From: a bacterium
GTDB taxonomy: Bacteria; Joyebacterota; Joyebacteria; Joyebacterales; Joyebacteraceae
Direction: 5' to 3'
Assembly (NCBI GenBank): GCA_029990205.1
Contig: JAPEKQ010000002.1
Coordinates: 96,845 to 160,844, forward strand
Length of the DNA: 64,000 nt
Shown here: piece by piece, positions 3,341 to 58,573 of the stretch
Layout: every line of letters begins with the position of its first letter
Numbering within the stretch: the stretch's first letter is position 1
Program-made: the position numbers and the translations under genes
The notes under the pieces: model-generated
The model's input: the letters and a program-made list of their open reading frames with translations, nothing else
Database searches by the model: none
Told to the model about the DNA's origin: nothing

Positions 3341-4444
3341 CTACTTCTTCGGCTTCGCGGGCTTCTGCGCGTGCTTCCGGATGTACGTCTCGGTCTTCTC
3401 CCGCGCCTCGTAATCCGTGTACTGGTTGGGCGGCGACTTGAAGAAGTACGAGGACGGCGCGTCGACCGCTCCGGAGAGCCCGTGGTCGAGCGCGAGCTTG
3501 CAGCAGCGCACGGCGTCGATCATCACGCCGGCCGAGTTCGGCGAGTCCCAGACCTCGAGCTTGAGCTCGGCGTTCAGCGGCACGTCGCCGAACGTACGAC
3601 CTTCCATCCGGACGTACGCCCACTTGCGGTCCGTCAGCCATGCGACGTAGTCCGACGGTCCGATGTGGACGTTGTCGGCGCCGATGTCGTAGTCGAGCTG
3701 CGAGGTGACGGCGTTGGTCTTCGAGATCTTCTTCGACTCGAGCCTCGAACGCTCGAGCATGTTGAGGAAGTCCGTGTTGCCTCCGACGTTGAGCTGGCTG
3801 GTCCGCTCGAGCCTGACACCGCGCTCGCGGAAGAGCGTCGTGAGAACGCGGTGAACGATGGTCGCGCCGACCTGCGACTTGATGTCGTCACCCATCACCG
3901 GCAGCCCCTTCTTCTCAAACCGCTGCTGCCAGTAGCGCTCACGCGCGATGAAGACGGGGATGCCGTTGACGAACCCGCAGCCCGCCTCGAGGATCTGCTC
4001 GACGTACCACTTGGTCGCCTCTTCGCTGCCCACCGGCAGGAAGCTCAGAACGACGTCGGTCTTCGTCTCCTTGAGGAGCCCGACGATGTCGTCCGTCGGC
4101 CCGGGCGCCTTCTCAATGACCTCGCTGAGGTACTTGCCCAGCCCGTCGTGCGTCATGCCGCGCGCCACCTTGACCCCGAGCTTCGGAACATCGGAGAACT
4201 TGTAGGTGTTGTTCGGCTTCGTGAAGATGGCCTCGGAGATGTCCTTCCCCACCTTGTTCTTGTCGATGTCGATCGCGGCGGAGATCTCCACGTCGCTGAT
4301 GTGGTAGCCACCGAGATTGACGTGCATCAGACCCGGCACGAACTCGTCGTCCGACGCGTTCTTGTAGAACTCGAGGCCCTGCACGAGCGACGAGCAGCAG
4401 TTGCCGATGCCGATGATAGCTACTCTGACCTTCTTCTTCCCCAT
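3341..4444 (-). CDS. ino1: myo-inositol-1-phosphate (inositol-3-phosphate) synthase
   Basis: 367-aa ORF. Rossmann N-terminus [19 protein letters not shown]. Overall length and sequence resemble the short bacterial/archaeal MIPS family. Confidence 0.88.
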
Positions 4445-5221: not shown

Positions 5222-7063
5222 TCATCGCCCCCGAACTCTCCTGCGGTTGGCAAGAAGCACGGTGTCGCGCAGCGCCTGTTCGCTCGTCGCCGCCATCCAG
5301 CGCTCGCTGAAGTCGGCGCCGCTGACGACCTGCGCGATTGCCGAGAGCGCCCACAGGTGAAGACTCCGCTCGTCCCCCGAACCGACCAGGACGAACGCGA
5401 TGTGAACGGGAGACGACTCCTCGGACAACGTGATGCCTTCACGGGATCGAGCCAGAAGGATGCCGAAGGCCCTCTCGCCGTCGATGACCACGTGCGGAAT
5501 GGCCAGTCCCGGAGCCAGCACCGTGGTGCTCTCCCGCTCCCTCGCGCGGAGCGCGTCCGCCAGAGCCGACGCGCTCACTCCCACCTGCGGCGCCAGCGCG
5601 CTGGAAACGGTGTCGAAGAACTCCTCTGATGACATCGTGCCCTCGATATCGAGGACGAGGCAGTCCTCGATGAGCCGGTCGAAACGATCCCGGACGATCC
5701 CGTCCCGCTCACGGATAATGTCCTTGAGTTCCGCATCGAGCGATCCGGTCACGAGTTCTTTGGCCGCGATCCTGTGGATCACGTGGAGCAGGGCGGACTC
5801 CTTGCCCGGTACTGACCTTCCGTAGAACCAGTACACGCAGAACCCGGCGAAGACCAGCGCGGCGACCGTGGCGAACGACCCCTCGCCCATCTCCAGCATG
5901 ACGAACAGGATACCCACCAGTCCGATCACCTGCACCCACGGGTAGCCGGGGGCGCGGAACTTCGGGCGGTAGTTATGGAGACCGCTCTCCCTCAGAACGA
6001 TGACGGCCGCGTTCGCGAGAACATACGTCATCAGGAACACGACCGAGGCGGCCTGAACCAGGGCGTCCAGCCTCACGAGGAGCGCTGCGGCCACGAGTCC
6101 TCCGGTGACCAGAAGCGAAACGTGCGGGGTCTGGAATCTCGCACCGACCCGTCCGAGCGGCTGCGGCACCAGCCCGTCGCGCCCGAGGGCGAGCAGGTAC
6201 CTGGAGGCCGCCATGATCCCCCCGTTCGCCGTGGTCAGGAAGGCGAGGAGCGCGGCGATACTGAGCGCCATCCTCCCCCCGGCCCCCATGAACGCCGCCG
6301 CCCCGTCGGAGATCGGCGTGAGTGATCCGTCGAGCAGCTCAGAACTCAACACCCCGCTGGTGATGAGCACGATGAGAACGTAGGCGACGCCTGTCACCGC
6401 GAGCGACGCGATCATGGCGCGCGGGATGACGCGCCCCGGGTCCTCAACCTCCTCCGCGATGCTCGCGACCTTGAGAAGCCCTCCGTACGATACGAACACG
6501 AAGCCGGACGTCGCGAGGACGGCCCGGAGCCCTCCCGGCGCGAACGGCCGCAGATTCGCCATCTCGATCGCCGGAAGCCCTCGGAAGACATAGGCCGCCA
6601 TCAGCGCGAGCAGCGCACAGACGAGGACGACCTGGAGCCTCGCGGCCTCTCTGGCGCCGAGCAGGTTCATCCCGACGAAGAACACACAGAACGCCCCACC
6701 GACGAGGCGCGGATCGATCGGAACGACGAGTTGGGCGAATGCGGCCAGGCCGACGAGCGCGAACGCGCTCTTGAGGGAGAGAGAGAACCAGGTCAGCAGT
6801 CCGGCGATGGTCCCGGCGGCCGCCCCCATGCTTCGCGACACGAAGAAGTAGTCGGCTCCGGCCTTCGGCATGGCGGTCGTGAGCTCGGCCATGCTGAGAA
6901 GACCGGTCGCGGCAAGGAGCCCGGCGAGAAGGTAGGATACGATGACGGCGGGACCCGCTCGTGCGTGCGCCAGGCCGGGCAGCACGAACACACCCGAGCT
7001 GATCATGGCTCCCGTCGCTATGCTGAAGACGTGGACGAAGCGGAGGTTCTTCTTGAGTCTCAT
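5222..7063 (-). CDS. APC-family amino-acid permease fused to a C-terminal PTS EIIA(Ntr/Fru)-type domain
   Basis: N-terminus FSIATGAMISSGVFVLPG, with about 12 hydrophobic segments. The C-terminal roughly 150 aa carry GLAIPHVVIDG, the EIIA type-2 phospho-His motif. Start at ATG 7063 with GGGAGGAG upstream. Confidence 0.8.
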   Translation of the reverse strand: MRLKKNLRFVHVFSIATGAMISSGVFVLPGLAHARAGPAVIVSYLLAGLLAATGLLSMAELTTAMPKAGADYFFVSRSMGAAAGTIAGLLTWFSLSLKSAFALVGLAAFAQLVVPIDPRLVGGAFCVFFVGMNLLGAREAARLQVVLVCALLALMAAYVFRGLPAIEMANLRPFAPGGLRAVLATSGFVFVSYGGLLKVASIAEEVEDPGRVIPRAMIASLAVTGVAYVLIVLITSGVLSSELLDGSLTPISDGAAAFMGAGGRMALSIAALLAFLTTANGGIMAASRYLLALGRDGLVPQPLGRVGARFQTPHVSLLVTGGLVAAALLVRLDALVQAASVVFLMTYVLANAAVIVLRESGLHNYRPKFRAPGYPWVQVIGLVGILFVMLEMGEGSFATVAALVFAGFCVYWFYGRSVPGKESALLHVIHRIAAKELVTGSLDAELKDIIRERDGIVRDRFDRLIEDCLVLDIEGTMSSEEFFDTVSSALAPQVGVSASALADALRARERESTTVLAPGLAIPHVVIDGERAFGILLARSREGITLSEESSPVHIAFVLVGSGDERSLHLWALSAIAQVVSGADFSERWMAATSEQALRDTVLLANRRRVRGR

Positions 7064-25095: not shown

Positions 25096-26373
25096 CTACC
25101 CGGCGCCGATCTCCTCGCGACCGTCCATGTAGGGCCGCAGGGCCTCCGGGATGACCACGGTTCCGCGTTCGGTCTGGTAGTTCTCGAGGATGGCGACCAT
25201 CGTGCGCGGCAGCGCGACCCCCGAACCGTTGAGCGTGTGAACGAACGTGGACTTGCCACCACCCGCGGGCTTGTACCGGATGCCGGAACGCCGCGCCTGG
25301 AAGTCGCCGAAGTTGCTGCACGACGACGCCTCGAGCCACTTGCCGATACCGGCGGCCCAGACGTCGATGTCGTAGCACTTGGCCGCGGCGAACGAGAGGT
25401 CGCCGGTGCAGAGCTCCTTCACCTGGTACGGGATGCCGAGTCGCTGGAGGATGTCCTCGGCGTTCGCGGTGAGCGTCTCGAGTTCATCGTACGATGTCTC
25501 CGGTACGACGAACTTCACCATCTCGACCTTGTCGAACTGGTGGATTCGCATCAGCCCGCGCGTGTCCTTGCCGTACGAGCCGGCCTCGCGACGGAAGCAC
25601 GGCGTGTACGCGGTCCGCATCACCGGGAGGTCCGACTCCGGCAGCGTGTCGTCGCGGTAGAGGTTCGTCACGGGAACCTCGCCCGTCGGGATCAGGAAGA
25701 GGTCGTCGCCCTCGCACCGGTACATGTCGTCCTCGAGCTTCGGCAGCTGGCCGGTCCCGAGCATCGAATCGCGGTTCGCCACGAACGGCGGCGACACCTC
25801 GGTGTAGCCGTGCTCCTTCGTGTGGACGTCGAGCATGAACGCGATCATCGCGCGTGCGAGCCTCGCGCCGTCACCGATGAACACCGGGAAGTTCGACCCG
25901 GCGATCTTCGTGCCGCGCGCGAAATCCAGCAACCCCAGCTCCTCACCGATCTCCCAATGCGGCACCGGGCTCTCGATGAGCGACCCGGGCTCCCCCCACG
26001 TCCGGACGACGACATTCTCGTCTTCGGTCCGTCCGACGGGGACCGACTCGTGCGGGATGTTCGGGAGCGTGATGAGCTGCGCGTGGATGTTCGCGCGGAG
26101 TTCGGAGATCTCCTCGTCGAAGCTCCCGATCTCGGCGGAGACGGCGCGCATCTTCTCGATGATCTCGCTGGCGTCCTCGCCCGCCTTCTTGAGCTTCGCG
26201 ACGCGCTCGCTCTCGGTGTTCCTGATCGCCTTGAGCTCCTCGGCTTTGCCGAGCAGGGCACGGAGCTCCTCGTCGAGCCGGAGAAGCGTATCGAGCTCCG
26301 CCTTCTCGCCCTTGTTCGCGATCGCCGTCTTCACAACGTCGGGGTTCGATCTCACATATCTCAGGTCCAGCAT
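25096..26373 (-). CDS. serS: seryl-tRNA synthetase
   Basis: MLDLRYVRSNPDVV, an N-terminal coiled coil, and the class II core FRREAGSYGKDTRGLMRIHQFDKVE. Confidence 0.95.
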   Translation of the reverse strand: MLDLRYVRSNPDVVKTAIANKGEKAELDTLLRLDEELRALLGKAEELKAIRNTESERVAKLKKAGEDASEIIEKMRAVSAEIGSFDEEISELRANIHAQLITLPNIPHESVPVGRTEDENVVVRTWGEPGSLIESPVPHWEIGEELGLLDFARGTKIAGSNFPVFIGDGARLARAMIAFMLDVHTKEHGYTEVSPPFVANRDSMLGTGQLPKLEDDMYRCEGDDLFLIPTGEVPVTNLYRDDTLPESDLPVMRTAYTPCFRREAGSYGKDTRGLMRIHQFDKVEMVKFVVPETSYDELETLTANAEDILQRLGIPYQVKELCTGDLSFAAAKCYDIDVWAAGIGKWLEASSCSNFGDFQARRSGIRYKPAGGGKSTFVHTLNGSGVALPRTMVAILENYQTERGTVVIPEALRPYMDGREEIGAG

Positions 26374-47964: not shown

Positions 47965-50289
47965 CTACTTCAGAAGCACCATCTTCGCCGATGCCTCGCG
48001 GCCCCCGGCGATGATCCGCGAGAAGTACACGCCCGCGGCGACACCGCGCCCGGCATCATCTCTGCCGTCCCAGACAACCTGGTGGCTGCCGGCGTCGCGC
48101 TCATCGCCCGCGAGCAGCGTCCGCACGAGCCTGCCGGCCGCGTCATAGACGCGGACGTCGGCGGTCCCACTCGAAGGCATCTGGAAGCTCACGCTCGTGT
48201 GCGGGTTGAACGGGTTCGGGAAGTTGGAGATGGCCAGCTCCCGCGGCACGAAGTCGTCCACGCCCGTCTCGGGCCCCTCGATCGAGATGAGTACGTCATC
48301 GACGTACCAGCCGTCGCGCTCGATGTACCCGTCGGAGTCGAGCAGGAACCGGATCTTGAACTGCGACGTGCCGACGTAGCTCGTCAGGTCGATCGTCTCC
48401 TCGGTCCAGGTCGACTGGCTCCCGTCGTACGTCGCGACGTCGGTCCAGGACGAGCCGTTGTTCGTGCTCACCTCGACGTAGCAGTAGTCGTAGCCGGACT
48501 CGGTGTCGTAGCGGTGCCAGAACGAGAGCTCGGCGCCATCGGCAGAACTGAGATCGATGGCGTTCGCGAGCGTCATCGTCTCGTAGTCGTTGCTCCCGTA
48601 GTTGCCACCCGGACTGTCGGTCATGCAGGTGCTCGGGCTGTACGACGTGGTCGTCGTCGTGCCCCAGCTCCCGGTCCACTCGGCGAGACCCGACTCGATA
48701 TCATCGAAGAAGTCGGGCGCCGCGAGGACGAAATCGACCGAAGCGATCGTGCCGTCGCCGACGCTGACATCGAGTTCCTCTCCCGACGAGTATCCGCTGC
48801 GCGACGCGCGGACATCATAGGTTCCGACAGGGATGTACTCGATCTCGTAGTAGCCGGTCGCATCGCTCTCGTCGGAGTAGCCGGTGGCGTCGGTCAGTTC
48901 GACCAGCGCTCCCTCGAGCGGCAACATCGACTCGTCACGAACGTAGCCTGCGATCGAACCGCGCGGCGGCGGCTCGAGCGCGAAGTTCACGACAACGAAC
49001 GTGTCGAGACTCGCGGAAACGTTGTAGACGGTCTGCGTCGGGTAGTCATCGGCCGAACAGACCACCGTGTAGGTGCCGGTCTCGACCATCCGGTGGTAGT
49101 CACCCACGTCCGGATCGGTGTAGATGTCCTTGCCGATCTCGGGGATGCTGATCGTCGCGTCGATGGGGTCGCCCGTCTCGGCGTCGGTCACCATCCCGCG
49201 AATCCCGCGGCCGGACATTCTGGCCTGATACAGCATCGCCGGGATGTTGTCGTCGACGATCCCGTCGATCGAAGACTCCGGCGGATCCTTCGTGACCGAC
49301 ACCTCGATCGTCGTGTCGATCTCGCCCCTCGTCTCGTAGCACCAGTCCTGGCAGGTGCCATCCGCGACGTACCAGTCGGCGCCGTTGGTCACCGGAAGAC
49401 CGCTCAGCGCGCCGTACTCGTCCGAGATCGTGATGATCATCGGTTCGTCGGGGGTCGGGTTGTACGTGTAGTCCCAGAGGTAGTTGACGTAGACCGCGCC
49501 CGAATGGAACGTGAGCGACGTCACCGGCCGCTTGTCCAGGTCGAAGTCACGGAGCGCCTGCGTCTCGGGCTCGGAGAACGCGGAACCGGCGTTGCTTCCG
49601 TCCGGACAGAGGTAGTTCCGGTTGAGATCGGTCCCGTTCCCGTTGTAGCGGGAGCCGTTCTCGTAGCCGTCCGGATTGAACATCGGGATGATCGTGATCT
49701 CGCGCTCGTTGACGAGCCACGTCACCTGGGGATCGGTCCCGTAGTTCTCGAGGAGGTACTCGATCATGTAGTAGCAGACGGCCATACTGATGGTCTCGTC
49801 GCCGTGGTGCGCGCCGATCCACTGGATCTCGGCCTCGAACTCCTCGACCGTCGGGTTGTCCGTGATCTTCAGCGCCCACATCTCCCGGCCGTACACGCTC
49901 TGACCGATCGAGACGAGTTCCGTGATGTTCGAATAGGTCGACGCCCACGCCTGCATGTCAGCCGTGAGCTCCGCGTAGCTGACGTACACGCCGCGGTCGG
50001 GCACCTTGAGCGACGCCACGGCGTCGATCATGTTCTCGACCGTGATGGCGGGGCGGAACCCGTTCGCCCACAGCGTCTCGATCTCCTCGGGGATGGCGGC
50101 GATCTGCGCCTTCCCGTCGGTCACGGACATGATGTCCATGTGGAGCTCGTTGAGACGATGGATATCGGCCCGCGAGAAGATGTCCACTTCAACAACGGCC
50201 GCGTCATCGCGCGGATAGGCAAGGACGGTCCCGGGGAGCGTCAGCAGGATGAGGAGGACGCCTGCCAGCGCGAGCTGAGCGACCCTCAT
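47965..50289 (-). CDS. secreted M14 zinc carboxypeptidase with two CarboxypepD_reg-like domains, a jelly-roll domain and a Por/T9SS-type (FlgD-Ig-like) C-terminal tail
   Basis: ATG 50289 with AAGGAG (7-nt spacer). Signal peptide MRVAQLALAGVLLILLTLPGTVLA. HxxE zinc motif WIGAHHGDE. Tail: NFPNPFNPHTSVSF...VRVYDAAGRLVRTL...VVWDGRDDAGRGVAAGVYFSRI...KMVLLK. Confidence 0.85.
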   Translation of the reverse strand: MRVAQLALAGVLLILLTLPGTVLAYPRDDAAVVEVDIFSRADIHRLNELHMDIMSVTDGKAQIAAIPEEIETLWANGFRPAITVENMIDAVASLKVPDRGVYVSYAELTADMQAWASTYSNITELVSIGQSVYGREMWALKITDNPTVEEFEAEIQWIGAHHGDETISMAVCYYMIEYLLENYGTDPQVTWLVNEREITIIPMFNPDGYENGSRYNGNGTDLNRNYLCPDGSNAGSAFSEPETQALRDFDLDKRPVTSLTFHSGAVYVNYLWDYTYNPTPDEPMIITISDEYGALSGLPVTNGADWYVADGTCQDWCYETRGEIDTTIEVSVTKDPPESSIDGIVDDNIPAMLYQARMSGRGIRGMVTDAETGDPIDATISIPEIGKDIYTDPDVGDYHRMVETGTYTVVCSADDYPTQTVYNVSASLDTFVVVNFALEPPPRGSIAGYVRDESMLPLEGALVELTDATGYSDESDATGYYEIEYIPVGTYDVRASRSGYSSGEELDVSVGDGTIASVDFVLAAPDFFDDIESGLAEWTGSWGTTTTTSYSPSTCMTDSPGGNYGSNDYETMTLANAIDLSSADGAELSFWHRYDTESGYDYCYVEVSTNNGSSWTDVATYDGSQSTWTEETIDLTSYVGTSQFKIRFLLDSDGYIERDGWYVDDVLISIEGPETGVDDFVPRELAISNFPNPFNPHTSVSFQMPSSGTADVRVYDAAGRLVRTLLAGDERDAGSHQVVWDGRDDAGRGVAAGVYFSRIIAGGREASAKMVLLK

Positions 50290-50326
50290 GGAACATCTCC
50301 TTTCACAGGGTTCTGACACGAGGACA

Positions 50327-50348
50327 GGTGGCCGGCACGCCGGCCACC
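50327..50348 (-). other. intercistronic GC hairpin between the Sec-protein gene and the M14 gene
   Basis: GGUGGCCGGC..GCCGGCCACC with no U-tract. It may stabilise the mRNA or act as a partial terminator. Confidence 0.4.
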
Positions 50349-50414
50349 CGCCCCCACGGATGAACTGTGCGCCTATCTCCGGGCTGCGGAGTCAGGCTCT
50401 TGATCTGCGCTCCC

Positions 50415-52460
50415 CTACTTCAGAAGCGCCATCTTGATGACATCGGTCTCCTCCGCGGTCACGAGCCTCGCGAAGTAGACACCGGTGGCCACGCTTCTGC
50501 CGCCCTCGTCACGACCGTTCCACACCACCGAGTGCGGTCCAGCCTCGATCTCGGAGTCCACGAGCGTCCGGACGAGCTGTCCGTTGACATTGTAGACACT
50601 GAGTTCCACCGCGCCCGCGTTGGCCGGGACGCTGAACTGGATGTTCGTGACGGGGTTGAACGGATTCGGCGTGTTCTGACGGAGAGCGAGCTTCGTGAAG
50701 TCCGTCTCGGGCTCCTCGACCCCGGTCTCGTCGAAGTCGAACCAGTCCATGATCTTCCCGGCAACCGTCATCTGGTTGTTCGGATCCGGATCATCGGTCT
50801 TGATGTCCTCGAACGGGAAGGCGAAGAAGACGATCTTGTGCCCGTTCTCGGAGATCTTGAGCGCCTTGTTTCCGCTGCCCGTCGTGAAGATCACGTCGGA
50901 CGTCGTCTCGAACGAGTCGCTCTCGGAGTACGGGATCGGTCCACCGAGCAGACCGAGCGACATGCCGTCGGAGATGAAGTCGGAAGCAACGCCGGTCATG
51001 ATGAACCCGGATGTGTCGTTCGTCCACGACGTGACGTGGAGGTAGTCCTCGATGAACGTGTTGGTCGACCGGCTCGAGAGGTAGTTCATGCTCAGCAGCG
51101 CGAGGTTGCCGCCCGCATCAAGATACCCCATCATCGCGTCCTCAGCAGCGGCCGTGATCGTCAGCGCATCGCGGCTCGCCGTCGTCCAGAAGACCGCGTA
51201 GTAGTCGGTGAGCTGCGGCAGACCCGGCGTGCCGTCGGTGTACGGACTCAGCGTGTACGGGTAGTACCCGTTGTCGGTGAGCGCGTCCTGGATGTAGGTC
51301 TCGTACATCATCGGACCGTCGTCGTCGACGATGAGGATCGCCGGTGTCTCGCAGAAGGCCACGAATTCGGAAACCTGCTCCATCGCGTTCGCCGCACTGG
51401 TCATGCTGAGCGACGTCACACCCTTGTCCACGAGCGTTCCGTTGTAGTCGATGATGTGCACGGTGAGCGTCTCGGTATCGCCGGCCGCGACGAAAATGTC
51501 GGTCGCGCCCATGTAGCAGATGCCGTCGGTCGTGCAGTAGTTGGAGACCCAGTTGTACGGATCGCCGGGGAAGTCGGTCGTGAAGTCAAACGTGTACGTG
51601 TCGTCGGCGGTACCCGTGTTCGTGCAGTAGACGGTGTACACGGCCTCGCCGAAGAAGTCGATCTCCTCGGCGTGGTGCGTCGCGACCATCTCGAACGAAT
51701 ACGGATCGGGCATGATCGCCGCGTTGATGACCTGCTGCGGCGACTGATCCTCGATGAAGACAACGACGTGCATGTTGAGCGGGTTGTCCGTCGAGTTCGT
51801 CACACCCGTGAACGTCTTGTTGAACGTGACGTGCTCGCCGACCTCGAGATCGGCTTCGAGGATGGTCTCGGCCATGAGCATGTCGCGGACCGTGTACGGG
51901 TACGAAGCGTTCACGTCCTCGTAGATGACGAACTGCGCGACCAGGTCGCCCGCGCCGATGACATCCGTCGCTGTGAACGTGACATCGATCGTCCCGCCGA
52001 CGGTCCCGCGAGTCCCCTCGGCCACGATCGTGCCGGACACATCGATCTCGACCGGTGACGCGACAGCGAGACGAGACTCGACGATCGGGCCGAAGGTGTT
52101 CCCCACCGTCGTGCCCGCGCCAACGACATTCTGCGCACCATCGAACACCGTGTGCGGAATGCCGCCGACACTGTAGTAGCTCGCGCGCTGATAGGTGTCA
52201 CCAGTCGCGTAGATGTCGCTCACGTGGTAATAGAGCACCACGAGATCATCACCGTACGGGCCATACTGCACGCCGGTACTCGTGTGCACATAGCCGTTGT
52301 CCTGAAGGTCTACCAACGCCGCACGGGCGTTTGGGCAGTAGCCTCAGCCAGTTGATCCAAAGAGCTCCGCCAGGACCGCCCTGTCCGACGCGAGGGCGGA
52401 GACGGCGGACATCAGCAGGACTGCCGTCACGAGGGCAAAGATCGCCGTACGCTTCACCAT
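50415..52460 (-). CDS. candidate selenoprotein: secreted thioredoxin-like UxxC protein with Por/T9SS-type C-terminal tail (TGA 52344-52346 read as Sec)
   Basis: ATG 52458-52460 with AAGGAG (6-nt spacer). Signal peptide MVKRTAIFALVTAVLLMSAVSALA. An in-frame TGA occurs at codon 39, and the same frame then runs without a stop into the 633-codon track ORF. The TGA aligns with the first Cys of CVNCPN in the paralog at 52618..53706. Tail: NTPNPFNPVTNIQF...LSVYNVNGQLVRTL...VVWNGRDEGGRSVATGVYFARL...KMALLK. Confidence 0.7.
52307..52343 (-). promoter_or_regulatory. candidate bacterial SECIS hairpin immediately 3' of the TGA
   Basis: The RNA GGCUACUGCCCAAACGCC[CGUGC]GGCGUUGGUAGACC can form about 13 bp. 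The upper stem is AACGCC/GGCGUU, there is a bulged A, and the apical loop CGUGC starts 19 nt after the UGA. Confidence 0.5.
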
Positions 52461-52617
52461 GCTGCTCTCCTTTCGCGGCGATGCCGCGCTGCTCTCAGGA
52501 TCCTTTCGCCCAGCCCAATGTGGCGACAGTGTTCCTGCTCTCGTGCTGTCGTTTCATGCTTCCTGTCGTCATCCGCTGCTGTTATGTCCTTCTCCCTGCA
52601 CCTGTGGTTCATCTATC

Positions 52618-53706
52618 TCAAGGACGCTGCGAGGTCGAGAGCCTCGCCGACTGAATGATCTCCAGCGTGTCATCGTTCTGAATGAACGCGATCGCGTCCA
52701 GATTCGCTGCGTTCCAACCGGGGTCGAGCGTCACGTCGTAGATGACCTCGGTGGACTCTCCGACTGCGGCCAGTGTGAACTGCTCGTCGTCGAGGATGTC
52801 GCGCGCGACGAACGGGAACAGATGCTGCGCGAAGGCAACATCCTCCTCCATCACGACGGTTCTCAGTACGTAGTCGCCCGCCGGCAACGCGTCTTCGACC
52901 CACACCTTCGCCGTCAACGAAGCGCGCGCCGAGAGGTCGCCGGTCAGCTCCATCGTGAGCGGTGACCCCACCGCCCGTCTGAGCTCGATCTCGAACTCGT
53001 ACTCGTCCTCGGCCTCCGCTACCGACGCGGCGCCGACGATCAGGCGCCCACCGTCGAAGATGGCCATCGGATGACCGCTACCGCCCGGGAACTCGGGATG
53101 GTTCAGATACCAGGTCTCCCGGGCCGCGGTCTCCGCCGTCCCGACCGGCTGGAGTGTGTGCCAGGCGACGACACAGAGCCTGTCCCTGCCGTACGCGTCC
53201 ATGAGGTTCTCGAGCGCCGCCTCGCCGTTGGGGCAGTTGACGCACGCGAAGTCGGTCATGAACTCGACGAGCACGTTCCGGTCGACCAGCCCCCCGGCCG
53301 GCCCGGCCGAGAACGAACAGGTCGCCGCTGTTCCCTCATCACCGGCGTCATCGACGGCCGCGACGGTGAAGACGTGATCGCCCTCCTCTACACTCTCAAT
53401 GAGAAGCGTGTCCGCCGTCGTCGATCCCGTGACGGTGTCGTCGTACGTCCACTCGTAGCTCGCCACATCACCATCGATGTCCGTGCCGACCCACCGGATG
53501 ATCGTGTCCTCGCCGGCGAGAAGCGTGCCCGCCTGGGGACAATCGGTGATCGTCACGCTCGGCAGGAAGTTCGCCGCGATCGGATCTGTGAACCAGTCAC
53601 ATCCTCCCTGTGCCGCGATCCAGACGACCAGGAGGATGAGCGCGAACAGCGGCCTGGCGGCGCGCGGCCGACCAACGCTGCTCGTATGATGCGTTCCGTT
53701 CGTCAC
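52618..53706 (-). CDS. lipoprotein with Ig-like N-domain and thioredoxin-like CxxC module (Cys paralog of the Sec protein)
   Basis: GTG start after AGGAGG. Lipobox LLVVWIAAQGGC. Redox motif FACVNCPNGEAALENL. It is collinear with the neighbouring gene through ...AIAFIQNDDTLEIIQSARL, compared with VVVFIEDQSPQQVINAAIM. Confidence 0.75.
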   Translation of the reverse strand: MTNGTHHTSSVGRPRAARPLFALILLVVWIAAQGGCDWFTDPIAANFLPSVTITDCPQAGTLLAGEDTIIRWVGTDIDGDVASYEWTYDDTVTGSTTADTLLIESVEEGDHVFTVAAVDDAGDEGTAATCSFSAGPAGGLVDRNVLVEFMTDFACVNCPNGEAALENLMDAYGRDRLCVVAWHTLQPVGTAETAARETWYLNHPEFPGGSGHPMAIFDGGRLIVGAASVAEAEDEYEFEIELRRAVGSPLTMELTGDLSARASLTAKVWVEDALPAGDYVLRTVVMEEDVAFAQHLFPFVARDILDDEQFTLAAVGESTEVIYDVTLDPGWNAANLDAIAFIQNDDTLEIIQSARLSTSQRP

Positions 53707-53718
53707 GAAACCATCCTC

Positions 53719-55197
53719 CTAGAAGTAGGTCGTCAGTCTGACGCGCGCACCCGAGAACTCCGGCTCGACGCGGCAGACGCCGCCCGAGCACTTGAGACCG
53801 CCGCGCTCGCTTCCGATCGACACGCCAAGCTCGAGGTCATCTCTGAGAATGCTCTTCACCTCGAACATCGCCCAGACACTCCGGTCCTCGGACTCGTCAT
53901 CCGTTCCCTCGACAACCGACGCGAAGGTGATGCCGGACGACGTGTAGACGGTCATCGCGACGAGGTAGTCGAGCGATACCGTCTCGGCGATGTCGGTCGT
54001 CTCACCGGCCTGCACCTGGAGCTCCATCGGCTGACCCGACGGCAGCGGCAGGATCACTTCCGCTCCGGCCGTCTTGTGCTCGATGAACTTGCCGAGTTCG
54101 TACTCGCGGGACCAGGCGGCTCCGGCAGAGAGTGACGTGTCACCGATCCACGCGTCGGCCTGCCCGAACATCTCCCAGTGCGCCAGGTCGGCGTCGTGGT
54201 TCCTCGCCTCCGACGCCCCGCCGAGGACGGTGACGCTCTCTCCGAGCGGCACGGTCGCCTCGACAAGATACCCGCGCTCGTCGTTGAGCTTCGGCTCGTA
54301 GGTCGCGCGGTTCATCAGCGTCCAGAGATGCTCGCGTACGGCCGTCGGCGGATTGACCAGGAAGTGCTGGAACCGGTCGTAATCCTTGTACTCACCGAAC
54401 AGCGTTGCCCACGGCAGCTCGACCGTCGCCGTGACATAGGTGGCATGACCCTCCATGTCATCGATCTCGAGTTCTCCGTCGTCGCCCTGACGCCCGACAT
54501 ACTCGCCCGCCAGCGACACCGGACCGAGCCACGCATTCACCTCACCGCCCAGAAGCAGGTCCTCGGAGCGCCCGAGTGACTCGGTAACGATCGGATCGTC
54601 GTCTTCCTTGTTCGACGCCCGCTCAACGACGCTTCCCGCGATGTCGAGCCAGCTCGCGACCGAGCGGGTCGCGCGAACAGCGCGAACGTTGTGCCTGCGA
54701 TACCTCGTCTCGGACAGCGGCTCGTCCACGGAACCCGCCAGCACGGTCACATCGGCGGCCGAGAACGAATACTCACCGAGCAGGCCGTCGAGCACGGTGT
54801 CGTGCTCAAGATCAACATCCTCGAAGCTCCTCAGAGCCAGCCCGCGACCGAACGTCGAGTAGAAGTGTCCCACCCGCAGGTGGAGATTCTCACGGTCGAG
54901 CGCGGCGTACCGGTGCTTGATCTCGGACTCCGGGATGTTCACGCCAGCCGGGTTGTATGTCGGCAGCGAGAGCTGGTAAGCGCGGTAGACGGCGCCCACG
55001 GTCAGCGGACCTATGCCGGCATCGACTTCGAGTCTGGCGTCGAAGGCGGACGCCTCCTCCCCCGTATCGAAGAGATACTCGCCGGTCACCGCGCCGCTCG
55101 ACCAGGCTCCGTCATCGGCCGAGGCTATCGCCGGCGCGACGGACATGAGTCCCGCAACGGCGATGCAAAGGAGGACTCGTCTAGTCAACGGCTCCAT
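53719..55197 (-). CDS. outer-membrane beta-barrel protein (family not recognised)
   Basis: ATG 55197. Signal peptide MEPLTRRVLLCIAVAGLMSVAPAIASA. Alternating-polarity strand pattern throughout, with C-terminal ...RVRLTTYF (aromatic terminus typical of BAM substrates). Confidence 0.62.
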   Translation of the reverse strand: MEPLTRRVLLCIAVAGLMSVAPAIASADDGAWSSGAVTGEYLFDTGEEASAFDARLEVDAGIGPLTVGAVYRAYQLSLPTYNPAGVNIPESEIKHRYAALDRENLHLRVGHFYSTFGRGLALRSFEDVDLEHDTVLDGLLGEYSFSAADVTVLAGSVDEPLSETRYRRHNVRAVRATRSVASWLDIAGSVVERASNKEDDDPIVTESLGRSEDLLLGGEVNAWLGPVSLAGEYVGRQGDDGELEIDDMEGHATYVTATVELPWATLFGEYKDYDRFQHFLVNPPTAVREHLWTLMNRATYEPKLNDERGYLVEATVPLGESVTVLGGASEARNHDADLAHWEMFGQADAWIGDTSLSAGAAWSREYELGKFIEHKTAGAEVILPLPSGQPMELQVQAGETTDIAETVSLDYLVAMTVYTSSGITFASVVEGTDDESEDRSVWAMFEVKSILRDDLELGVSIGSERGGLKCSGGVCRVEPEFSGARVRLTTYF

Positions 55198-55762
55198 CCT
55201 CGTTGACGGCCGCTTCCTCGGTCTCAGCCTCGTCGCCCTCGTCCGGACAGTCCTCGGGGATGAGCGCCGCGACGGCGGCGTCCAGTTCCGCGTGGTTCGT
55301 CGGCCGGTACCCGGTGACCGCCCACGCGACCGTCCCATCCTGCCTCACGAGAACCGTGCGCGGGACCGACGTCACGTGGTACTTCTTCGCGACGGCCATA
55401 CTCGGGTCGAGCAGCACCTCAAAGGTGTTGCCCTTCGAGGCGATGAACGGCTTCACCTTCGAGGTCGAACGAGGTCCGTCGATCGAGATCGCAACGACCG
55501 TCAGACCGCAGTCTTCGTATTTGTCAAAGAGCTCCTGCAGATCCGGAAAGGCCTTGATGCACGGCTTGCACCACGTGGCCCAGAAATCAAGGACAACCGG
55601 TCCATCCTTCAGCAACTCAGAGAGCGTCACATCTTCGCCGTCGATGTTCTTCAGCGTGAACTCGGGCGCCTTCGCATTGGCGCCGTATGACATAGTCGTC
55701 CCCATCAACACGAGGACGGCCGCGCACAGAAGTGCGAGTCCGGTTCGTCTCCTGCCGGTCAT
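55181..55762 (-). CDS. TlpA/ResA-type periplasmic thiol:disulfide oxidoreductase
   Basis: Signal peptide. PEFTLKNIDGEDVTLSELLKDGPVVLDFWATWCKPCIKAFP. Confidence 0.85.
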   Translation of the reverse strand: MTGRRRTGLALLCAAVLVLMGTTMSYGANAKAPEFTLKNIDGEDVTLSELLKDGPVVLDFWATWCKPCIKAFPDLQELFDKYEDCGLTVVAISIDGPRSTSKVKPFIASKGNTFEVLLDPSMAVAKKYHVTSVPRTVLVRQDGTVAWAVTGYRPTNHAELDAAVAALIPEDCPDEGDEAETEEAAVNEDGAVD

Positions 55763-55788
55763 GAGTCCCCCAATAGTTGGCCTAACTT

Positions 55789-55817
55789 ATTATACCACCA
55801 TCATTACCAATGGTCAA
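55789..55817 (-). promoter_or_regulatory. near-consensus sigma70 promoter of the redox/peptidase operon
   Basis: Minus strand reads TTGACC, 17 nt, TATAAT. The 26 nt between the -10 and ATG 55762 contain GGGGGA. Confidence 0.7.
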
Positions 55818-56046
55818 GGCATCATCAGAGCGGCCCTGTTCGACCGATCTGGCGCCTGTCCCCCTCACCATGAGCGGAAGTCCGCGTACAGGGCCTTCCA
55901 CGGCTCCGACGTACGCGCCCCCGACCATCGTCTGCTTCGATGCAGACGTCAGCCGGGGGGATTCGACGCTCTTGTGCCGGTCATCATTCGTTGCCGGCGC
56001 AACTGCTTTGCACACAGTAATATAGCGGGTCATCGCGGTATCCGGT

Positions 56047-56721
56047 CTATCCCGCGAGCGCTCCCGCTTCAACTCCCAGTGTATGAACGGGCTCGGTGTC
56101 CGGCCCCAGGTGCCCGAGGATGCATCCAAGCGCCTCATGGATGGCGTCCTCGTCGGTGACCAAGTTCATCGAGTCGGTCTCGAGCGTCAGGACCGTCGTC
56201 TCTGCCCTGGCCCGGTCGCTCCAATCCTCGTACGCGTCGTTGAGCGCCTCGAGATAGGCCGGGTCGATGTCACGTTCGCAGTCGCGCCCGCGACATCCGA
56301 TACGGTCGAGCAGCGTGCCGACTCGCGCCCGCAGATAGACGATGAGATCCGGCGTCCTCAGGAAGCTCGTCATCGCATCGAAGAGCGCGGTGTAATTCTC
56401 GTAGTCGCGCTCGGGCATGTTGCCCTGACGGTAGAGGGTCGTCGCGAAGATCTCCTTGTCCTCGTAGATGGTCCTGTCCTGAATGCACGACTCGTCCGAG
56501 CCGACCATCTCGCGGTGGATCTCAAAACGCTTCGAAAGGAAGTAGACCTGAAGGTGGAACGACCACCGGTCCATGTCGGAGTAGAAGTCGTTGAGGTAGG
56601 GGTTGTTGATGACCGGTTCGTAGTACGCGCGCCATCCAAGCTGGTTCGCGAGCAGCGTCGTGAGGTGCGTCTTGCCGACACCGATGTTTCCCGCGACCGC
56701 GACAAACTGTCCGGGCTTCAT
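56047..56721 (-). CDS. deoxynucleoside kinase
   Basis: MKPGQFVAVAGNIGVGKTHLTTLLANQLGW...YEPV..NPYLNDFY...FHLQVYFLSKRF. ATG 56721 follows GGAG (6-nt spacer). The track start at 56829 is the alternative. Confidence 0.85.
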   Translation of the reverse strand: MKPGQFVAVAGNIGVGKTHLTTLLANQLGWRAYYEPVINNPYLNDFYSDMDRWSFHLQVYFLSKRFEIHREMVGSDESCIQDRTIYEDKEIFATTLYRQGNMPERDYENYTALFDAMTSFLRTPDLIVYLRARVGTLLDRIGCRGRDCERDIDPAYLEALNDAYEDWSDRARAETTVLTLETDSMNLVTDEDAIHEALGCILGHLGPDTEPVHTLGVEAGALAG

Positions 56722-56900
56722 GAGCGACTCCAGGGCTGTTTCGGCTGACCGCCGGCGGAGGAACGCCGGCTCGAGGCGGTCGCAGTATAGGATGTTCGGC
56801 TCGCGAGTGTCAACGGCAATCGGGGCCATCCAGAGGATGACCCCGACAGAATCTCAGATGGCCACAACGCTGCGTTCCTGCGCCGGCCCGCGGCGTCCGC

Positions 56901-57293
56901 TCAGGCCACGATGACGACTTCGGTCCCGACCTCGACGGCCGCAGCGAGACGCGTGAGTTCCTCGTTCCGCATCCGTATGCAGCCGCGGCTCGACTTCGTC
57001 CCGATCGAATCGGGCTCGTCCGTCCCGTGGATGCCTATCCCCTCCCACGGCGGGCAGTCCAGCCGCAGGAAGAGTGGGCCGTACGAAAGCCTGCCCGCAT
57101 GCTCCCAGTCGCCTGAGTCCTCGATGGACACGATTCGGAACGTCCCCTCGGGAGTCCGACAGTCCCCGACCGCCAGCTTGTCCCCCGCATCGGGGTTCGA
57201 GCCGATGCCGATCGTGAATCGCTCGGTCCCCGCGTCGGTGACAAGCTCGAGCGCGAACTCGGACTTCCTCACGATGATGCGCGAGGCGCTCAT
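56901..57293 (-). CDS. L,D-transpeptidase (YkuD) catalytic domain protein without a signal peptide
   Basis: TPEGTFRI...GIGIHGTDEPDSIGTKSSRGCIRM (His/Cys catalytic motif). The domain starts at residue 5 and there is no hydrophobic N-terminus. Confidence 0.85.
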   Translation of the reverse strand: MSASRIIVRKSEFALELVTDAGTERFTIGIGSNPDAGDKLAVGDCRTPEGTFRIVSIEDSGDWEHAGRLSYGPLFLRLDCPPWEGIGIHGTDEPDSIGTKSSRGCIRMRNEELTRLAAAVEVGTEVVIVA

Positions 57294-57421
57294 CGATCAG
57301 TCTCCGGGCTCTGCTCGCTGCGGCTCTGCTGCGTCGTCTCGTGCGTGCTCTTCTGCGTCGCCTCCTCTGCTCCCTGTTCTGTGGTGTTCACCCGCTCCGC
57401 GGGTTCGCATGAACCGCGGAG

Positions 57422-57517
57422 TCAGGTCGACACCCCCAGACGGGGCAGGATCACAAGCTGCAGCAGAAGCCAGACCGCCACGAACGCGATCGGCAGCGCC
57501 AGTTCGCCCATCCTCAT
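57422..57517 (-). CDS. 31-codon single-TM micro-ORF ending at UGA (possible recoding site)
   Basis: AAGGAG lies 10 nt before ATG 57517. Peptide MRMGELALPIAFVAVWLLLQLVILPRLGVST. About 87 percent of third positions are G/C. The UGA at 57422-57424 is followed at +1 by an 11-bp hairpin. Confidence 0.4.
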   Translation of the reverse strand: MRMGELALPIAFVAVWLLLQLVILPRLGVST

Positions 57518-57591
57518 CGTCCACCCGCTCCTTGATCGAACCGTGTGTCGCCCGGACACTCTCCGGGCTACCTGGATGCTCTCCGGTCTAT

Positions 57592-58176
57592 CTAGATGTT
57601 CTCCGCGCCGCCCAGGAGCATCTCGATCTCGGACCGCATCTCGGGACGCATCTCGTTGGAGAAACCGATGTGCTTGGCTGCGATGCGACCGTCGCGCCCG
57701 ATGATGAACGTCGTCGGAATACCGCTGACCTTGTACGCCTCACCGACGGTACGGTTGCCAACGAGAATCGTGTAGTCGATGCCGTTGCTGTCGACGAACG
57801 GAGCGAGATCCGTCGCGCCACCCTGGTCGAGGCCGACGATCTCGAGCCCCTGCTCTTCGAACTCATCGTAGAGCTCTATGAGGAACGGGATCTCCTCGCG
57901 GCACGGCGGACACCACGTCGCCCAGAGGTCGAGCACGACGACCTTGCCATCGAAATCGCTCAGCGAGACTTCCTCGCCGTCGAGATTCGGAAGCACGAAC
58001 GCCGGCGGGAACTCACCCACGTTGACGCCGGTCTCCTCGGAGGTTTCGGGGCTGTCCATCGCGACGGTCTCGTCCGCCGTCGTCGCGGCCTCGTCCGTCG
58101 AGCCGCTGCACCCGCCGAGGATGCCGACGGCGAACAGGGCGATCAGCGCGAAGGCCACTGCGTTTCTCATCTTCAT
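57592..58176 (-). CDS. TlpA-family thiol:disulfide oxidoreductase lipoprotein
   Basis: Lipobox GILGGCSG. VVLDLWATWCPPCREEIPFL. Confidence 0.85.
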   Translation of the reverse strand: MKMRNAVAFALIALFAVGILGGCSGSTDEAATTADETVAMDSPETSEETGVNVGEFPPAFVLPNLDGEEVSLSDFDGKVVVLDLWATWCPPCREEIPFLIELYDEFEEQGLEIVGLDQGGATDLAPFVDSNGIDYTILVGNRTVGEAYKVSGIPTTFIIGRDGRIAAKHIGFSNEMRPEMRSEIEMLLGGAENI

Positions 58177-58240
58177 AGTCTCACTCCCTGAGCTGTGTCC
58201 GCGCCGGGCGCCGTGCGCCGCGCGGAAGCTGTGTCCGTGC

Positions 58241-58573
58241 CTATGCGAGATGCTGGTCGATGCGCTCCTGGATGCTCTGCTTCGAGGCGGCGCCGACGAT
58301 CATGTCGACCTGCTGTCCGGCCTTGAAGAACAGAAGCGCGGGGATGCCGCGGATGCCGTACTGCTGCGCGAGCGTCGGGTTCTCATCGACGTTCACCTTC
58401 GCGACCTTCATCTTGCCTGCGTTGTCGACGGCGATCTCGTCCACGACGGGACCGACGAGCCTGCACGGGGCACACCAGGGCGCCCAAAAGTCCACGAGGA
58501 CCAGTCCGCTGTCACCAGCTACTTCCGTCGCGAAGTTGTCGACCGTTGCTGTGATCACGCCTTCTCCAGCCAT
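58241..58573 (-). CDS. trxA: thioredoxin
   Basis: VLVDFWAPWCAPCRLVGP...GIRGIPALLFFK. Confidence 0.92.
   Translation of the reverse strand: MAGEGVITATVDNFATEVAGDSGLVLVDFWAPWCAPCRLVGPVVDEIAVDNAGKMKVAKVNVDENPTLAQQYGIRGIPALLFFKAGQQVDMIVGAASKQSIQERIDQHLA

Follow-up and report, generated by a model that had tools for sequence, protein, structure and literature searches.

The family 'hypothetical protein GOS_C' was described in 2008 from ocean metagenomes and comprises 74 sequences with selenocysteine (Sec) and 312 with Cys, in which a UxxC motif is placed in a thioredoxin-like (Trx-like) fold; its function is unknown (Zhang and Gladyshev 2008, PMC2398784). In a 2026 review, this family has been equated with the NCBIfam family NF045500, called 'Omp28-related selenoprotein'. 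Here, a gene of an uncultured Eisenbacteria-group bacterium on contig JAPEKQ010000002.1 (assembly GCA_029990205.1) is presented, which lies on the minus strand of a 64-kb stretch of DNA with a GC content of 65.5% (the window, meaning the whole stretch that was analyzed) and whose reading frame of 681 codons is interrupted by a TGA. As judged from sequence comparison, this TGA is with a probability of about 0.88 a genuine Sec codon, and the gene would encode a 681-amino acid (aa) exported UxxC selenoprotein with a secretion tail, in the following called the Sec protein. This would be a case of standard bacterial Sec recoding in an unannotated multidomain relative of the GOS_C/Omp28-related family, by which the understanding of Sec decoding is left unchanged.

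Both the Sec protein and the CxxC-containing product of the neighboring gene have NF045500 as their best NCBIfam match. This bears out the connection to Omp28, which had been suggested by an earlier inspection of the DNA letters (the sequence-only reading). The alignment spans residues 21–247 of the Sec protein and positions 33–263 of the profile, which has a length of 377, and the score of 40.5 bits stays below the curated cutoff of 200; three other members of the family reach 20.5, 45.6, and 41.5 bits. This indicates a remote relative with the same redox module, which forms a separate family and is no member of NF045500. The UxxC motif in a Trx-like fold that characterizes NF045500 is present as U-G-Y-C, the fold being taken from the model of a Cys orthologue (P0003). 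Further common features of GOS_C/NF045500 and the present protein are the single Sec, which is predicted for the latter, the many Cys homologues, a Sec insertion sequence (SECIS), here a candidate one, directly after the UGA and a presumed thiol-based redox role. From the common UxxC motif, rather than from the profile column itself, the Sec position would be equivalent to that of NF045500. In contrast to GOS_C/NF045500, the present protein is extended by three domains, namely a second beta-sandwich, a GATase1/ThuA-like domain and the tail of type IX secretion system (T9SS) cargo, and whereas GOS_C was found in marine surface-water reads, the present family stems from metagenome-assembled genomes (MAGs) of Eisenbacteria, Krumholzibacteriia, and Fibrobacteraceae.

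The Omp28 lipoproteins (PF11551, NF033782) likewise display a Trx-like CxxC segment followed by an all-beta domain, and both the Sec protein and its paralogue match them weakly. Here, all scores remain under the curated cutoffs: where PF11551 has a gathering threshold of 34.9 bits, the Sec protein reaches 26.6 and the paralogue 16.8 bits, and the other scores are 16–45 vs. a cutoff of 150. Unlike these lipoproteins, the Sec protein has a predicted cleavable signal peptide ending in ALA before S, contains no lipobox, is much larger and carries a T9SS domain at its end.

Sec forms of DsbA-like, TlpA/ResA-like (UGC or WAxxUGC) and thiol-disulfide isomerase-like proteins resemble the present protein in that an exported Trx fold carries Sec in place of the N-terminal Cys of its redox motif. 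Their Cys forms are dominant in other lineages, and NF041054 is among the profile matches. In contrast to the Sec protein, they are single-domain and periplasmic or membrane-anchored, and a T9SS sorting domain has been reported for none of them. The DsbA-like and TlpA-like Sec forms have been catalogued (2026 review; PMC2398784). Since envelope Trx-fold selenoproteins are already catalogued, an extracytoplasmic selenoprotein is not unprecedented. The sequence-only reading, which had called such a protein unusual, overstated the novelty, since GOS_C has been known since 2008 and is curated in NCBIfam, and exported Sec proteins exist. FdnG of E. coli is an exported bacterial selenoprotein. No paper was found in the literature that links selenoproteins with T9SS cargo, Omp28, or Eisenbacteria. 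With the present gene, the idea of an Omp28-related/GOS_C selenoprotein comes to include a large protein of several domains that bears a secretion tail and is encoded in a conserved redox cassette, which provides a concrete context for what a long-uncharacterized family does outside the cytoplasm. The relevance lies in the annotation and the biology of uncultured bacteria of the Fibrobacterota-Chlorobiota-Bacteroidota (FCB) group, and specialists on selenoproteins will not be surprised.

The in-frame TGA and its counterparts in related loci

All coordinates of the Sec gene refer to the minus strand of the window and are collected in Table 1. The frame opens with an ATG (52460–52458) and runs to a TAG (50417–50415), and the TGA is the only stop between the two. 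The N-terminus, MVKRTAIFALVTAVLLMSAVSALA followed by SD, shows a KR n-region, a hydrophobic core and an A-x-A site, which by eye are the features of a signal peptide; in the AlphaFold2 (AF2) model of P0003, a low-confidence N-terminal helix is located at this position. In the mechanical list of open reading frames (ORFs), the downstream part begins at a TTG (52316) and comprises 633 aa. A local tblastn search against the neighboring gene aligned its DRNVLVEFMTDFACVNCPNGEAALE to SDRAVLAELFGSTG, the TGA and GYCPNARAALV of the Sec gene. Here, the TGA column falls on the first Cys of the neighbor's CxxC motif within DFACVNCPNG. The Shine-Dalgarno-like AAGGAG, the start codon, the TGA, the open frame and the hairpin described below had all been given correctly in the sequence-only reading, and the signal peptide, the pairing of the TGA with the first CxxC Cys and the C-terminal secretion tail, for which TIGR04183 and PF18962 score above their curated cutoffs, were confirmed as well.

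The same TGA is present in the NCBI MAGs GCA_029990285.1 and GCA_029990195.1 and in the Logan assembly SRR24302418. A downstream gene of 624 aa is called on 10 contigs, each of them with a separate 38-aa ORF ending at the same TGA. Protein searches returned two classes, one of ~670-aa proteins with 100% query cover that read through as ...VLAELFGSTGCGYCPNA..., and one of 611–634-aa proteins that start just past the VLAELFGSTGCGYCPNA motif. To place the second class, residues 1–253 were used as a tblastn query against the DNA of the relatives from species-representative genomes and metagenome loci, which revealed a TGA exactly at the Cys column of the truncated class. Throughout this search, column 39 is occupied by TGA in 33 distinct 75-nucleotide (nt) contexts with 25–100% protein identity and by TGC or TGT in 38 further contexts; neither TAA nor TAG occurs among them. 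The TGA contexts belong to MAGs labeled Candidatus Eisenbacteria, Krumholzibacteriia, and Fibrobacteraceae as well as to unclassified MAGs. The occurrence of both Cys and TGA in relatives at this one column is in line with the sequence-only reading, and no orthologue that starts downstream with a signal peptide of its own was observed.

Furthermore, a metagenome collection was scanned in an unbiased manner with the DNA pattern TTYGG-N10-TGH-GGN-TAY-TGY-CCN-AAY-GC, in which TGH admits TGA, TGC, and TGT. The codon was TGA at 19/19 sites, and at each of them the start codon, the signal peptide and VLAELFG are intact upstream in the same frame. Among the TGA-bearing orthologues, the 38 codons 5' of the TGA are conserved in frame as protein. 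Moreover, readthrough at 8 TGA sites in 7 more distant loci (Eisenbacteria, Krumholzibacteriia, Fibrobacteraceae, and unclassified MAGs) yields full-length ORFs of 660–710 aa. Two hallmarks by which bacterial selenoproteins are recognized (summarized in PMC13188914) are observed here, an in-frame TGA opposite a conserved Cys of the homologues and TGA-bearing homologues in other organisms with both flanks in frame.

Within the window, the stop codons of the 52 called genes are TAG (31), TGA (19), and TAA (2), and the neighboring paralogue itself ends in TGA. The dominance of TAG is unusual for a bacterial genome with 65.5% GC, in which TGA normally dominates. A reassignment of TGA (genetic codes 4 or 25) was considered and ruled out, since TGA is an ordinary stop in 19/52 of the window genes.

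A Sec-type locus (L101) with 46% protein identity and a Cys-type locus (L102) with 62% share the ten-gene neighborhood of the window. Such a common gene order is classically seen where Sec and Cys have been exchanged within one gene and, judged by it, the Sec-type and Cys-type genes are true orthologues. Sec and Cys orthologues in identical synteny represent a clean natural experiment on SECIS constraint and Sec/Cys exchange.

In all public gene calls examined for TGA-bearing copies (the window, L001–L003, and L101), the gene is split into a 37–38-aa ORF and a truncated ORF of 611–634 aa, which for the window are an ORF of 38 aa and one of 624 aa (50415–52289). The downstream starts (ATG, GTG, or TTG) are inconsistent among orthologues, and the truncated products lack a signal peptide. 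Due to this split, dozens of MAGs misdescribe a conserved envelope protein, and the selenoproteome of the Eisenbacteria group is unrecognized.

Several variations of the gene were observed in the related loci. Two tandem Sec-type copies are found in L016 (TGA at 3967 and 6115), and in L093 and L097 (two pattern matches each), with signal peptide, TGA, and hairpin in each copy. In the Candidatus Eisenbacteria MAGs JAUWCJ01 (L011) and JAUVLG01 (L012), a Sec-type relic is located at ~5990–6180 directly upstream of an intact Cys-type copy. Here, the head (signal peptide ...ELFGATS and TGA) is fused by an internal deletion and a frame shift to a tail ending in ARLTANEESAFRKMTLLK and a stop, which looks like a Sec paralogue lost in a lineage that kept or converted to Cys. 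The window protein shares with its closest relatives P0002, P0005, and P0007 an insertion of ~11 residues (NGYVHTSTGVQYGPYGD) after helix 1 of the Trx-like domain (window 52270–52320, residues 54–71), which P0003, P0004, and more distant orthologues lack.

The hairpin downstream of the UGA

The RNA directly at the UGA can be folded into a stem-loop. Numbered from the U of the UGA, RNAfold places an upper stem between nt 16–21 (AACGCC) and nt 27–32 (GGCGUU), a lower stem between nt 9–13 and 33–37, and a basal stem that includes the UGA between nt 1–5 and 40–44. The apical loop CGUGC (nt 22–26) begins 19 nt past the UGA, which reproduces an observation of the sequence-only reading. The bacterial SECIS (bSECIS) model describes an apical loop of 3–9 nt with a G within its first two positions, often followed by G or U, an upper stem of 4–16 bp, a distance of 16–37 nt between UGA and loop and a minimum free energy of at most -7.5 kcal/mol (PMC13188914). 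With its criteria taken from this publication, the model accommodates the window element in every respect, with a 5-nt loop having G at position 2 followed by U, a 6-bp stem, a spacing of 18 nt, and -10.6 kcal/mol.

Like the fdhF/fdnG-type SECIS of E. coli, the window element is a stem-loop that starts at the UGA and exposes G-U in an apical loop ~20 nt downstream. In the fdhF element, G23 and U24 are the contacts of SelB, and nt 23 and 24 of the window element are G and U. In contrast to this similarity in shape, the sequences are unrelated, and for the window element, which has no Rfam match, binding of SelB is at most predicted.

The case for the hairpin is a comparative one. In 22 distinct contexts of Sec-type orthologues, codons +5 to +9 (AAC GCC CGT GCG GCG) show zero synonymous variation, while variation is free at the four-fold sites -4 to -2, +1, and +4, each of which is filled by 3 or 4 codons. 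Rare codons are among those preserved: CGT, which is conserved, accounts for 12% of the Arg codons in this genome, and TTG and CTT, both largely conserved, account for 3.8% and 9.8% of the Leu codons. In seven Cys-type relatives with the C-GYCP motif, both codons and amino acids vary at +5 to +8. In more distant Sec-type clades, the sequence differs and the position of the hairpin is retained, its loop being GGC, GGU, or GUG at nt 21–25. The best single hairpin within nt 10–51 reaches a mean of -11.1 kcal/mol in Sec-type vs. -7.0 kcal/mol in Cys-type sequences (Mann-Whitney p = 3e-7; p = 3e-5 if restricted to ≥60% GC). An ungapped alignment of 24 Sec-type sequences has 80.6% of its cells paired, vs. 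35–49% if the partners are slid, and 93.8% in the upper helix; five pairs show double changes, a count reached in 0/500 shuffles. By these comparisons, the hairpin is under synonymous-site constraint solely in TGA-bearing genes and behaves as a SECIS would.

Proposed Sec insertion and its alternatives

Several observations weigh against the interpretation as a selenoprotein. No selA, selB, selD, or tRNA-Sec was detected in the window by ARAGORN, Rfam, and Pfam, the latter on 40 window ORFs, and the same negative was obtained in ~100 related loci of 1–22 kb by ARAGORN and by tblastn with SelA, SelB, and SelD of E. coli. The tblastn negatives are weak on account of the queries used, and the negatives from the window and the loci carry no information on the rest of the genome. 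A gene-anchored scan of the window for TGA-interrupted genes returned only the present gene. With respect to the hairpin, the fold energy is not better than that of dinucleotide-shuffled controls at 65.5% GC (z = -0.49), so that the energy alone proves nothing and the argument has to be comparative instead of thermodynamic. The samples of Sec-type and Cys-type sequences whose hairpin energies were compared are not phylogenetically independent. As the upper stem hardly varies, there is little covariation, and across the aligned sequences the overall signal of the hairpin is conservation and not rich covariation. No Rfam family exists for the hairpin, and a scan of the window at the gathering thresholds gave two tRNAs only. 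Finally, the Trx fold is suggested by the topology of the model together with weak matches of hidden Markov models.

Beside these points, a permissive Rfam scan of 52200–52480 gave one chance match (neisseria_FSE, E = 5.9) and no curated SECIS. A second scan for TGA-interrupted genes, based on the GC content of third codon positions, was misled by antisense frames and did not recover even the present gene. In every locus, the redoxin and thioredoxin neighbors carry Cys. At 25096–26373 on the minus strand, the window also contains the gene of a seryl-tRNA synthetase; the enzyme is needed to charge tRNA-Sec, but it is a housekeeping enzyme and no evidence of a Sec trait.

The TGA could be a nonsense mutation or an assembly or sequencing error, the gene being a pseudogene or truly encoding Cys by TGC or TGT. 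TGA is one substitution away from these codons, close Cys orthologues exist (P0003 with 76% identity, L007, and L008), and the window is MAG-type data. However, the same TGA is found in three independent assemblies and on 10 contigs, it recurs over the whole range of contexts and pattern sites described above, the frame is intact and conserved on both sides, and the real relic in L011 and L012, with its deletion and frame shift, looks very different. Because the TGA is conserved in many contexts and the readthrough ORFs are full-length, a pseudogene or an assembly error cannot account for the pattern; the chance of this explanation is practically negligible, and the comparative data effectively refute it. 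Two separate products would be in line with the public gene calls, which all display the split form, a 38-aa peptide up to the TGA and a 611–634-aa protein from a downstream GTG, TTG, or ATG, and in-frame starts are indeed available, such as the TTG at 52316 and a GTG at codon 58, which is used for P0001. These starts differ among the orthologues, though, and provide neither a Shine-Dalgarno sequence nor a signal peptide for a protein with a secretion tail. Moreover, with two products the UxxC motif would be divided and the Trx-like domain would lose its strand 1. The Cys orthologues are continuous through this point, and in-frame conservation at the protein level extends over the 38 upstream codons, which leaves two products as an extremely unlikely outcome.

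A further explanation would be readthrough of the UGA without Sec, by near-cognate Cys or Trp insertion or by a lineage-specific suppressor, with the hairpin as a readthrough stimulator. This would fit to the failure to find Sec machinery in the window and the ~100 loci, and a stimulatory hairpin is compatible with several recoding mechanisms. Nevertheless, it is very unlikely: TGA terminates other genes of the window and is not reassigned, Sec/Cys exchange classically takes place at the attacking Cys of a redox motif, which is the position recoded here, the hairpin agrees with the SelB-type bSECIS model down to the loop G-U and the spacing, and the related NF045500/GOS_C is an accepted family of UxxC selenoproteins. 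One 681-aa exported UxxC selenoprotein instead of the 633-aa ORF, as had been proposed from the letters of the window, is favored by the Sec/Cys column, the exclusive use of TGA among the stop codons, the conserved upstream frame, the constrained hairpin and the independent assemblies.

For this selenoprotein, the following mechanism is proposed. The comparisons show the Sec/Cys pair, the conserved TGA and upstream frame, the constraint on the hairpin RNA, the domain architecture and the synteny, and from these, Sec insertion itself, the route of export, the redox partners and the substrate are inferred. Translation would begin at the ATG at 52460, and UGA-39 would be decoded as Sec by SelB and Sec-tRNA(Sec), recruited by the stem-loop that starts at the UGA and presents the CGUGC loop. 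The signal peptide would direct the precursor across the inner membrane via the Sec translocon, and the C-terminal type A sorting domain would then hand it over to a type IX-like system for surface display or release. At the mature N-terminus, the Trx-fold U-G-Y-C with Sec as the attacking residue may act as an extracytoplasmic selenol/thiol-disulfide oxidoreductase, a role suggested by the genomic context only. Probable partners are encoded upstream, namely the CxxC Omp28-like paralogue, the DUF6029 barrel and the exported ResA/TlpA-like redoxin, the last of which probably keeps the Sec protein in its reduced state. For the beta-sandwiches and the GATase1/ThuA-like domain, a role as scaffold or in binding is likely.

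Gene neighborhood and domain architecture

Table 1. Features of the Sec gene, its predicted product and the neighboring genes (coordinates of the window).
Feature	Coordinates	Strand	Details and basis
Full CDS (coding sequence) of the predicted selenoprotein	50415..52460	-	681 codons, Sec at codon 39, TAG stop; translation; 670–673-aa Cys orthologues cover 100%
AAGGAG, Shine-Dalgarno-like	52467..52472	-	6-nt spacer before ATG; direct sequence reading
Putative signal peptide, residues 1–24 (MVKRTAIFALVTAVLLMSAVSALA)	52389..52460	-	by eye; in-frame conservation in all TGA-bearing orthologues
Predicted Sec codon TGA, codon 39	52344..52346	-	identical in further assemblies; aligns with TGA or TGC/TGT in all homologues
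UxxC redox motif U-G-Y-C, residues 39–42	52335..52346	-	translation
Candidate bacterial SECIS, nt 1–45 from U of UGA	52302..52346	-	upper stem 52315–52331, loop CGUGC 52321–52325; folds and comparison
Trx-like domain, ~residues 27–131	52068..52382	-	topology of AF2 model of P0003; weak DUF1223 match, residues 31–80; NF045500, residues 21–247
Omp28-like beta-sandwich, ~residues 137–249	51714..52052	-	PF11551, residues 93–248, E = 6e-6, below gathering score; P0003 all-beta 126–237
Second beta-sandwich (Ig-like), ~residues 256–370	51351..51695	-	AF2 strands 244–358 of P0003
GATase1/ThuA-like alpha/beta domain, invariant VDDDG motif, ~residues 375–576	50733..51338	-	
FlgD-Ig-like/T9SS type A C-terminal sorting domain, residues 598–681	50418..50669	-	PF13860, PF18962, TIGR04183
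Upstream paralogue, 362 aa	52618..53706	-	Ig-like domain, Trx-like CVNC (TGC 53242–53244), Omp28-like sandwich
DUF6029, predicted outer-membrane beta-barrel, outer-membrane-protein-like end ...RLTTYF	53719..55146	-	PF19494, E = 1.5e-27; syntenic in L101, L102
Exported ResA/TlpA-like thiol-disulfide oxidoreductase, signal peptide, WCKPC	55181..55762	-	NF002854 ResA, E = 6e-29; syntenic
M14 zinc carboxypeptidase, CarboxypepD_reg and MAM-like domains, same FlgD_ig/T9SS tail	47965..50319	-	downstream; syntenic; start codon uncertain

The neighborhood shared with L101 and L102 spans 47965–58573 on the minus strand of the window and is syntenic despite only 46–62% identity of the Sec/Cys proteins. 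Its ten genes encode, in order, an ArsR-type HTH regulator, a thioredoxin, a redoxin, a YkuD protein, a deoxynucleoside kinase, the ResA-like redoxin, the DUF6029 protein, an Omp28-like CxxC protein of 339–362 aa, the Sec/Cys protein and the M14 carboxypeptidase. Two of the products are exported ResA-like redoxins. The paralogue, which is a Cys form in every locus seen, is located directly upstream of the Sec gene in L004–L006, L014–L016, L090–L093, L097, L099, L101, and L102. This suggests an envelope redox/proteolysis module.

The Sec protein could be the first selenoprotein to be described as cargo of a type IX-like system, a surface-bound or released Sec oxidoreductase in a dedicated envelope redox relay with a co-secreted M14 carboxypeptidase. 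This proposal is a tentative one and is held at somewhat less than even odds. If it were true, the relay would run from the exported ResA-like redoxin via the DUF6029 barrel and the CxxC Omp28-like protein to the Sec protein, whose possible role would be the reduction of disulfides in extracellular substrates ahead of proteolysis by the M14 enzyme. In that case, the way in which these lineages gained and lost the use of selenium would be recorded in the repeated Sec-to-Cys switches, the tandem Sec copies and the deletion relics. With regard to the export route, the tail reaches 50.6 bits for PF13860 (FlgD_ig), 31.7 bits for TIGR04183 (cutoff 23), and 28.4 bits for PF18962 (cutoff 27), i.e., a C-terminal domain as found in T9SS type A cargo is recognized over curated cutoffs. 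None of the annotated genes of the window encodes PorU, PorV, SprA, or the like, the rest of the genome lying outside this annotation.

The architecture of the Sec protein was derived from the AF2 model of P0003 (76–77% identical), which has a mean predicted local distance difference test (pLDDT) score of 86. Residues 29–120 of the model follow the order beta-alpha-beta-alpha-beta-beta-alpha, and the CxxC motif lies at the N-terminus of the first helix (42–56) after the strand 29–35, which is the thioredoxin arrangement. The alpha/beta domain occupies residues 363–565 and the C-terminal beta-sandwich residues 583–670. A Foldseek search of the whole-protein model against the PDB retrieved generic tandem Ig-like matches only and was uninformative, and a homologue search with the N-terminal domain alone gave a single match.

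The alpha/beta domain, modeled separately, displays structural similarity to the class I glutamine amidotransferase-like/ThuA-like fold. A catalytic Cys-His-Glu triad was not found in it, as the domain contains no (nearly) invariant Cys and H541 is the sole nearly invariant His. Conserved are D379–D381, W425, Y473, E551, and W573. Since no catalytic triad is conserved, the domain is probably not an amidotransferase. There is no Pfam model for this VDDDG domain, which is also fused to an M6 metalloprotease (P0044) and to S8 peptidases (P0050 and P0055), the latter two of which additionally match the C-terminal tail region of the Sec protein. In these phyla, the VDDDG domain appears to recur in secreted proteins as a module that has not been described before.

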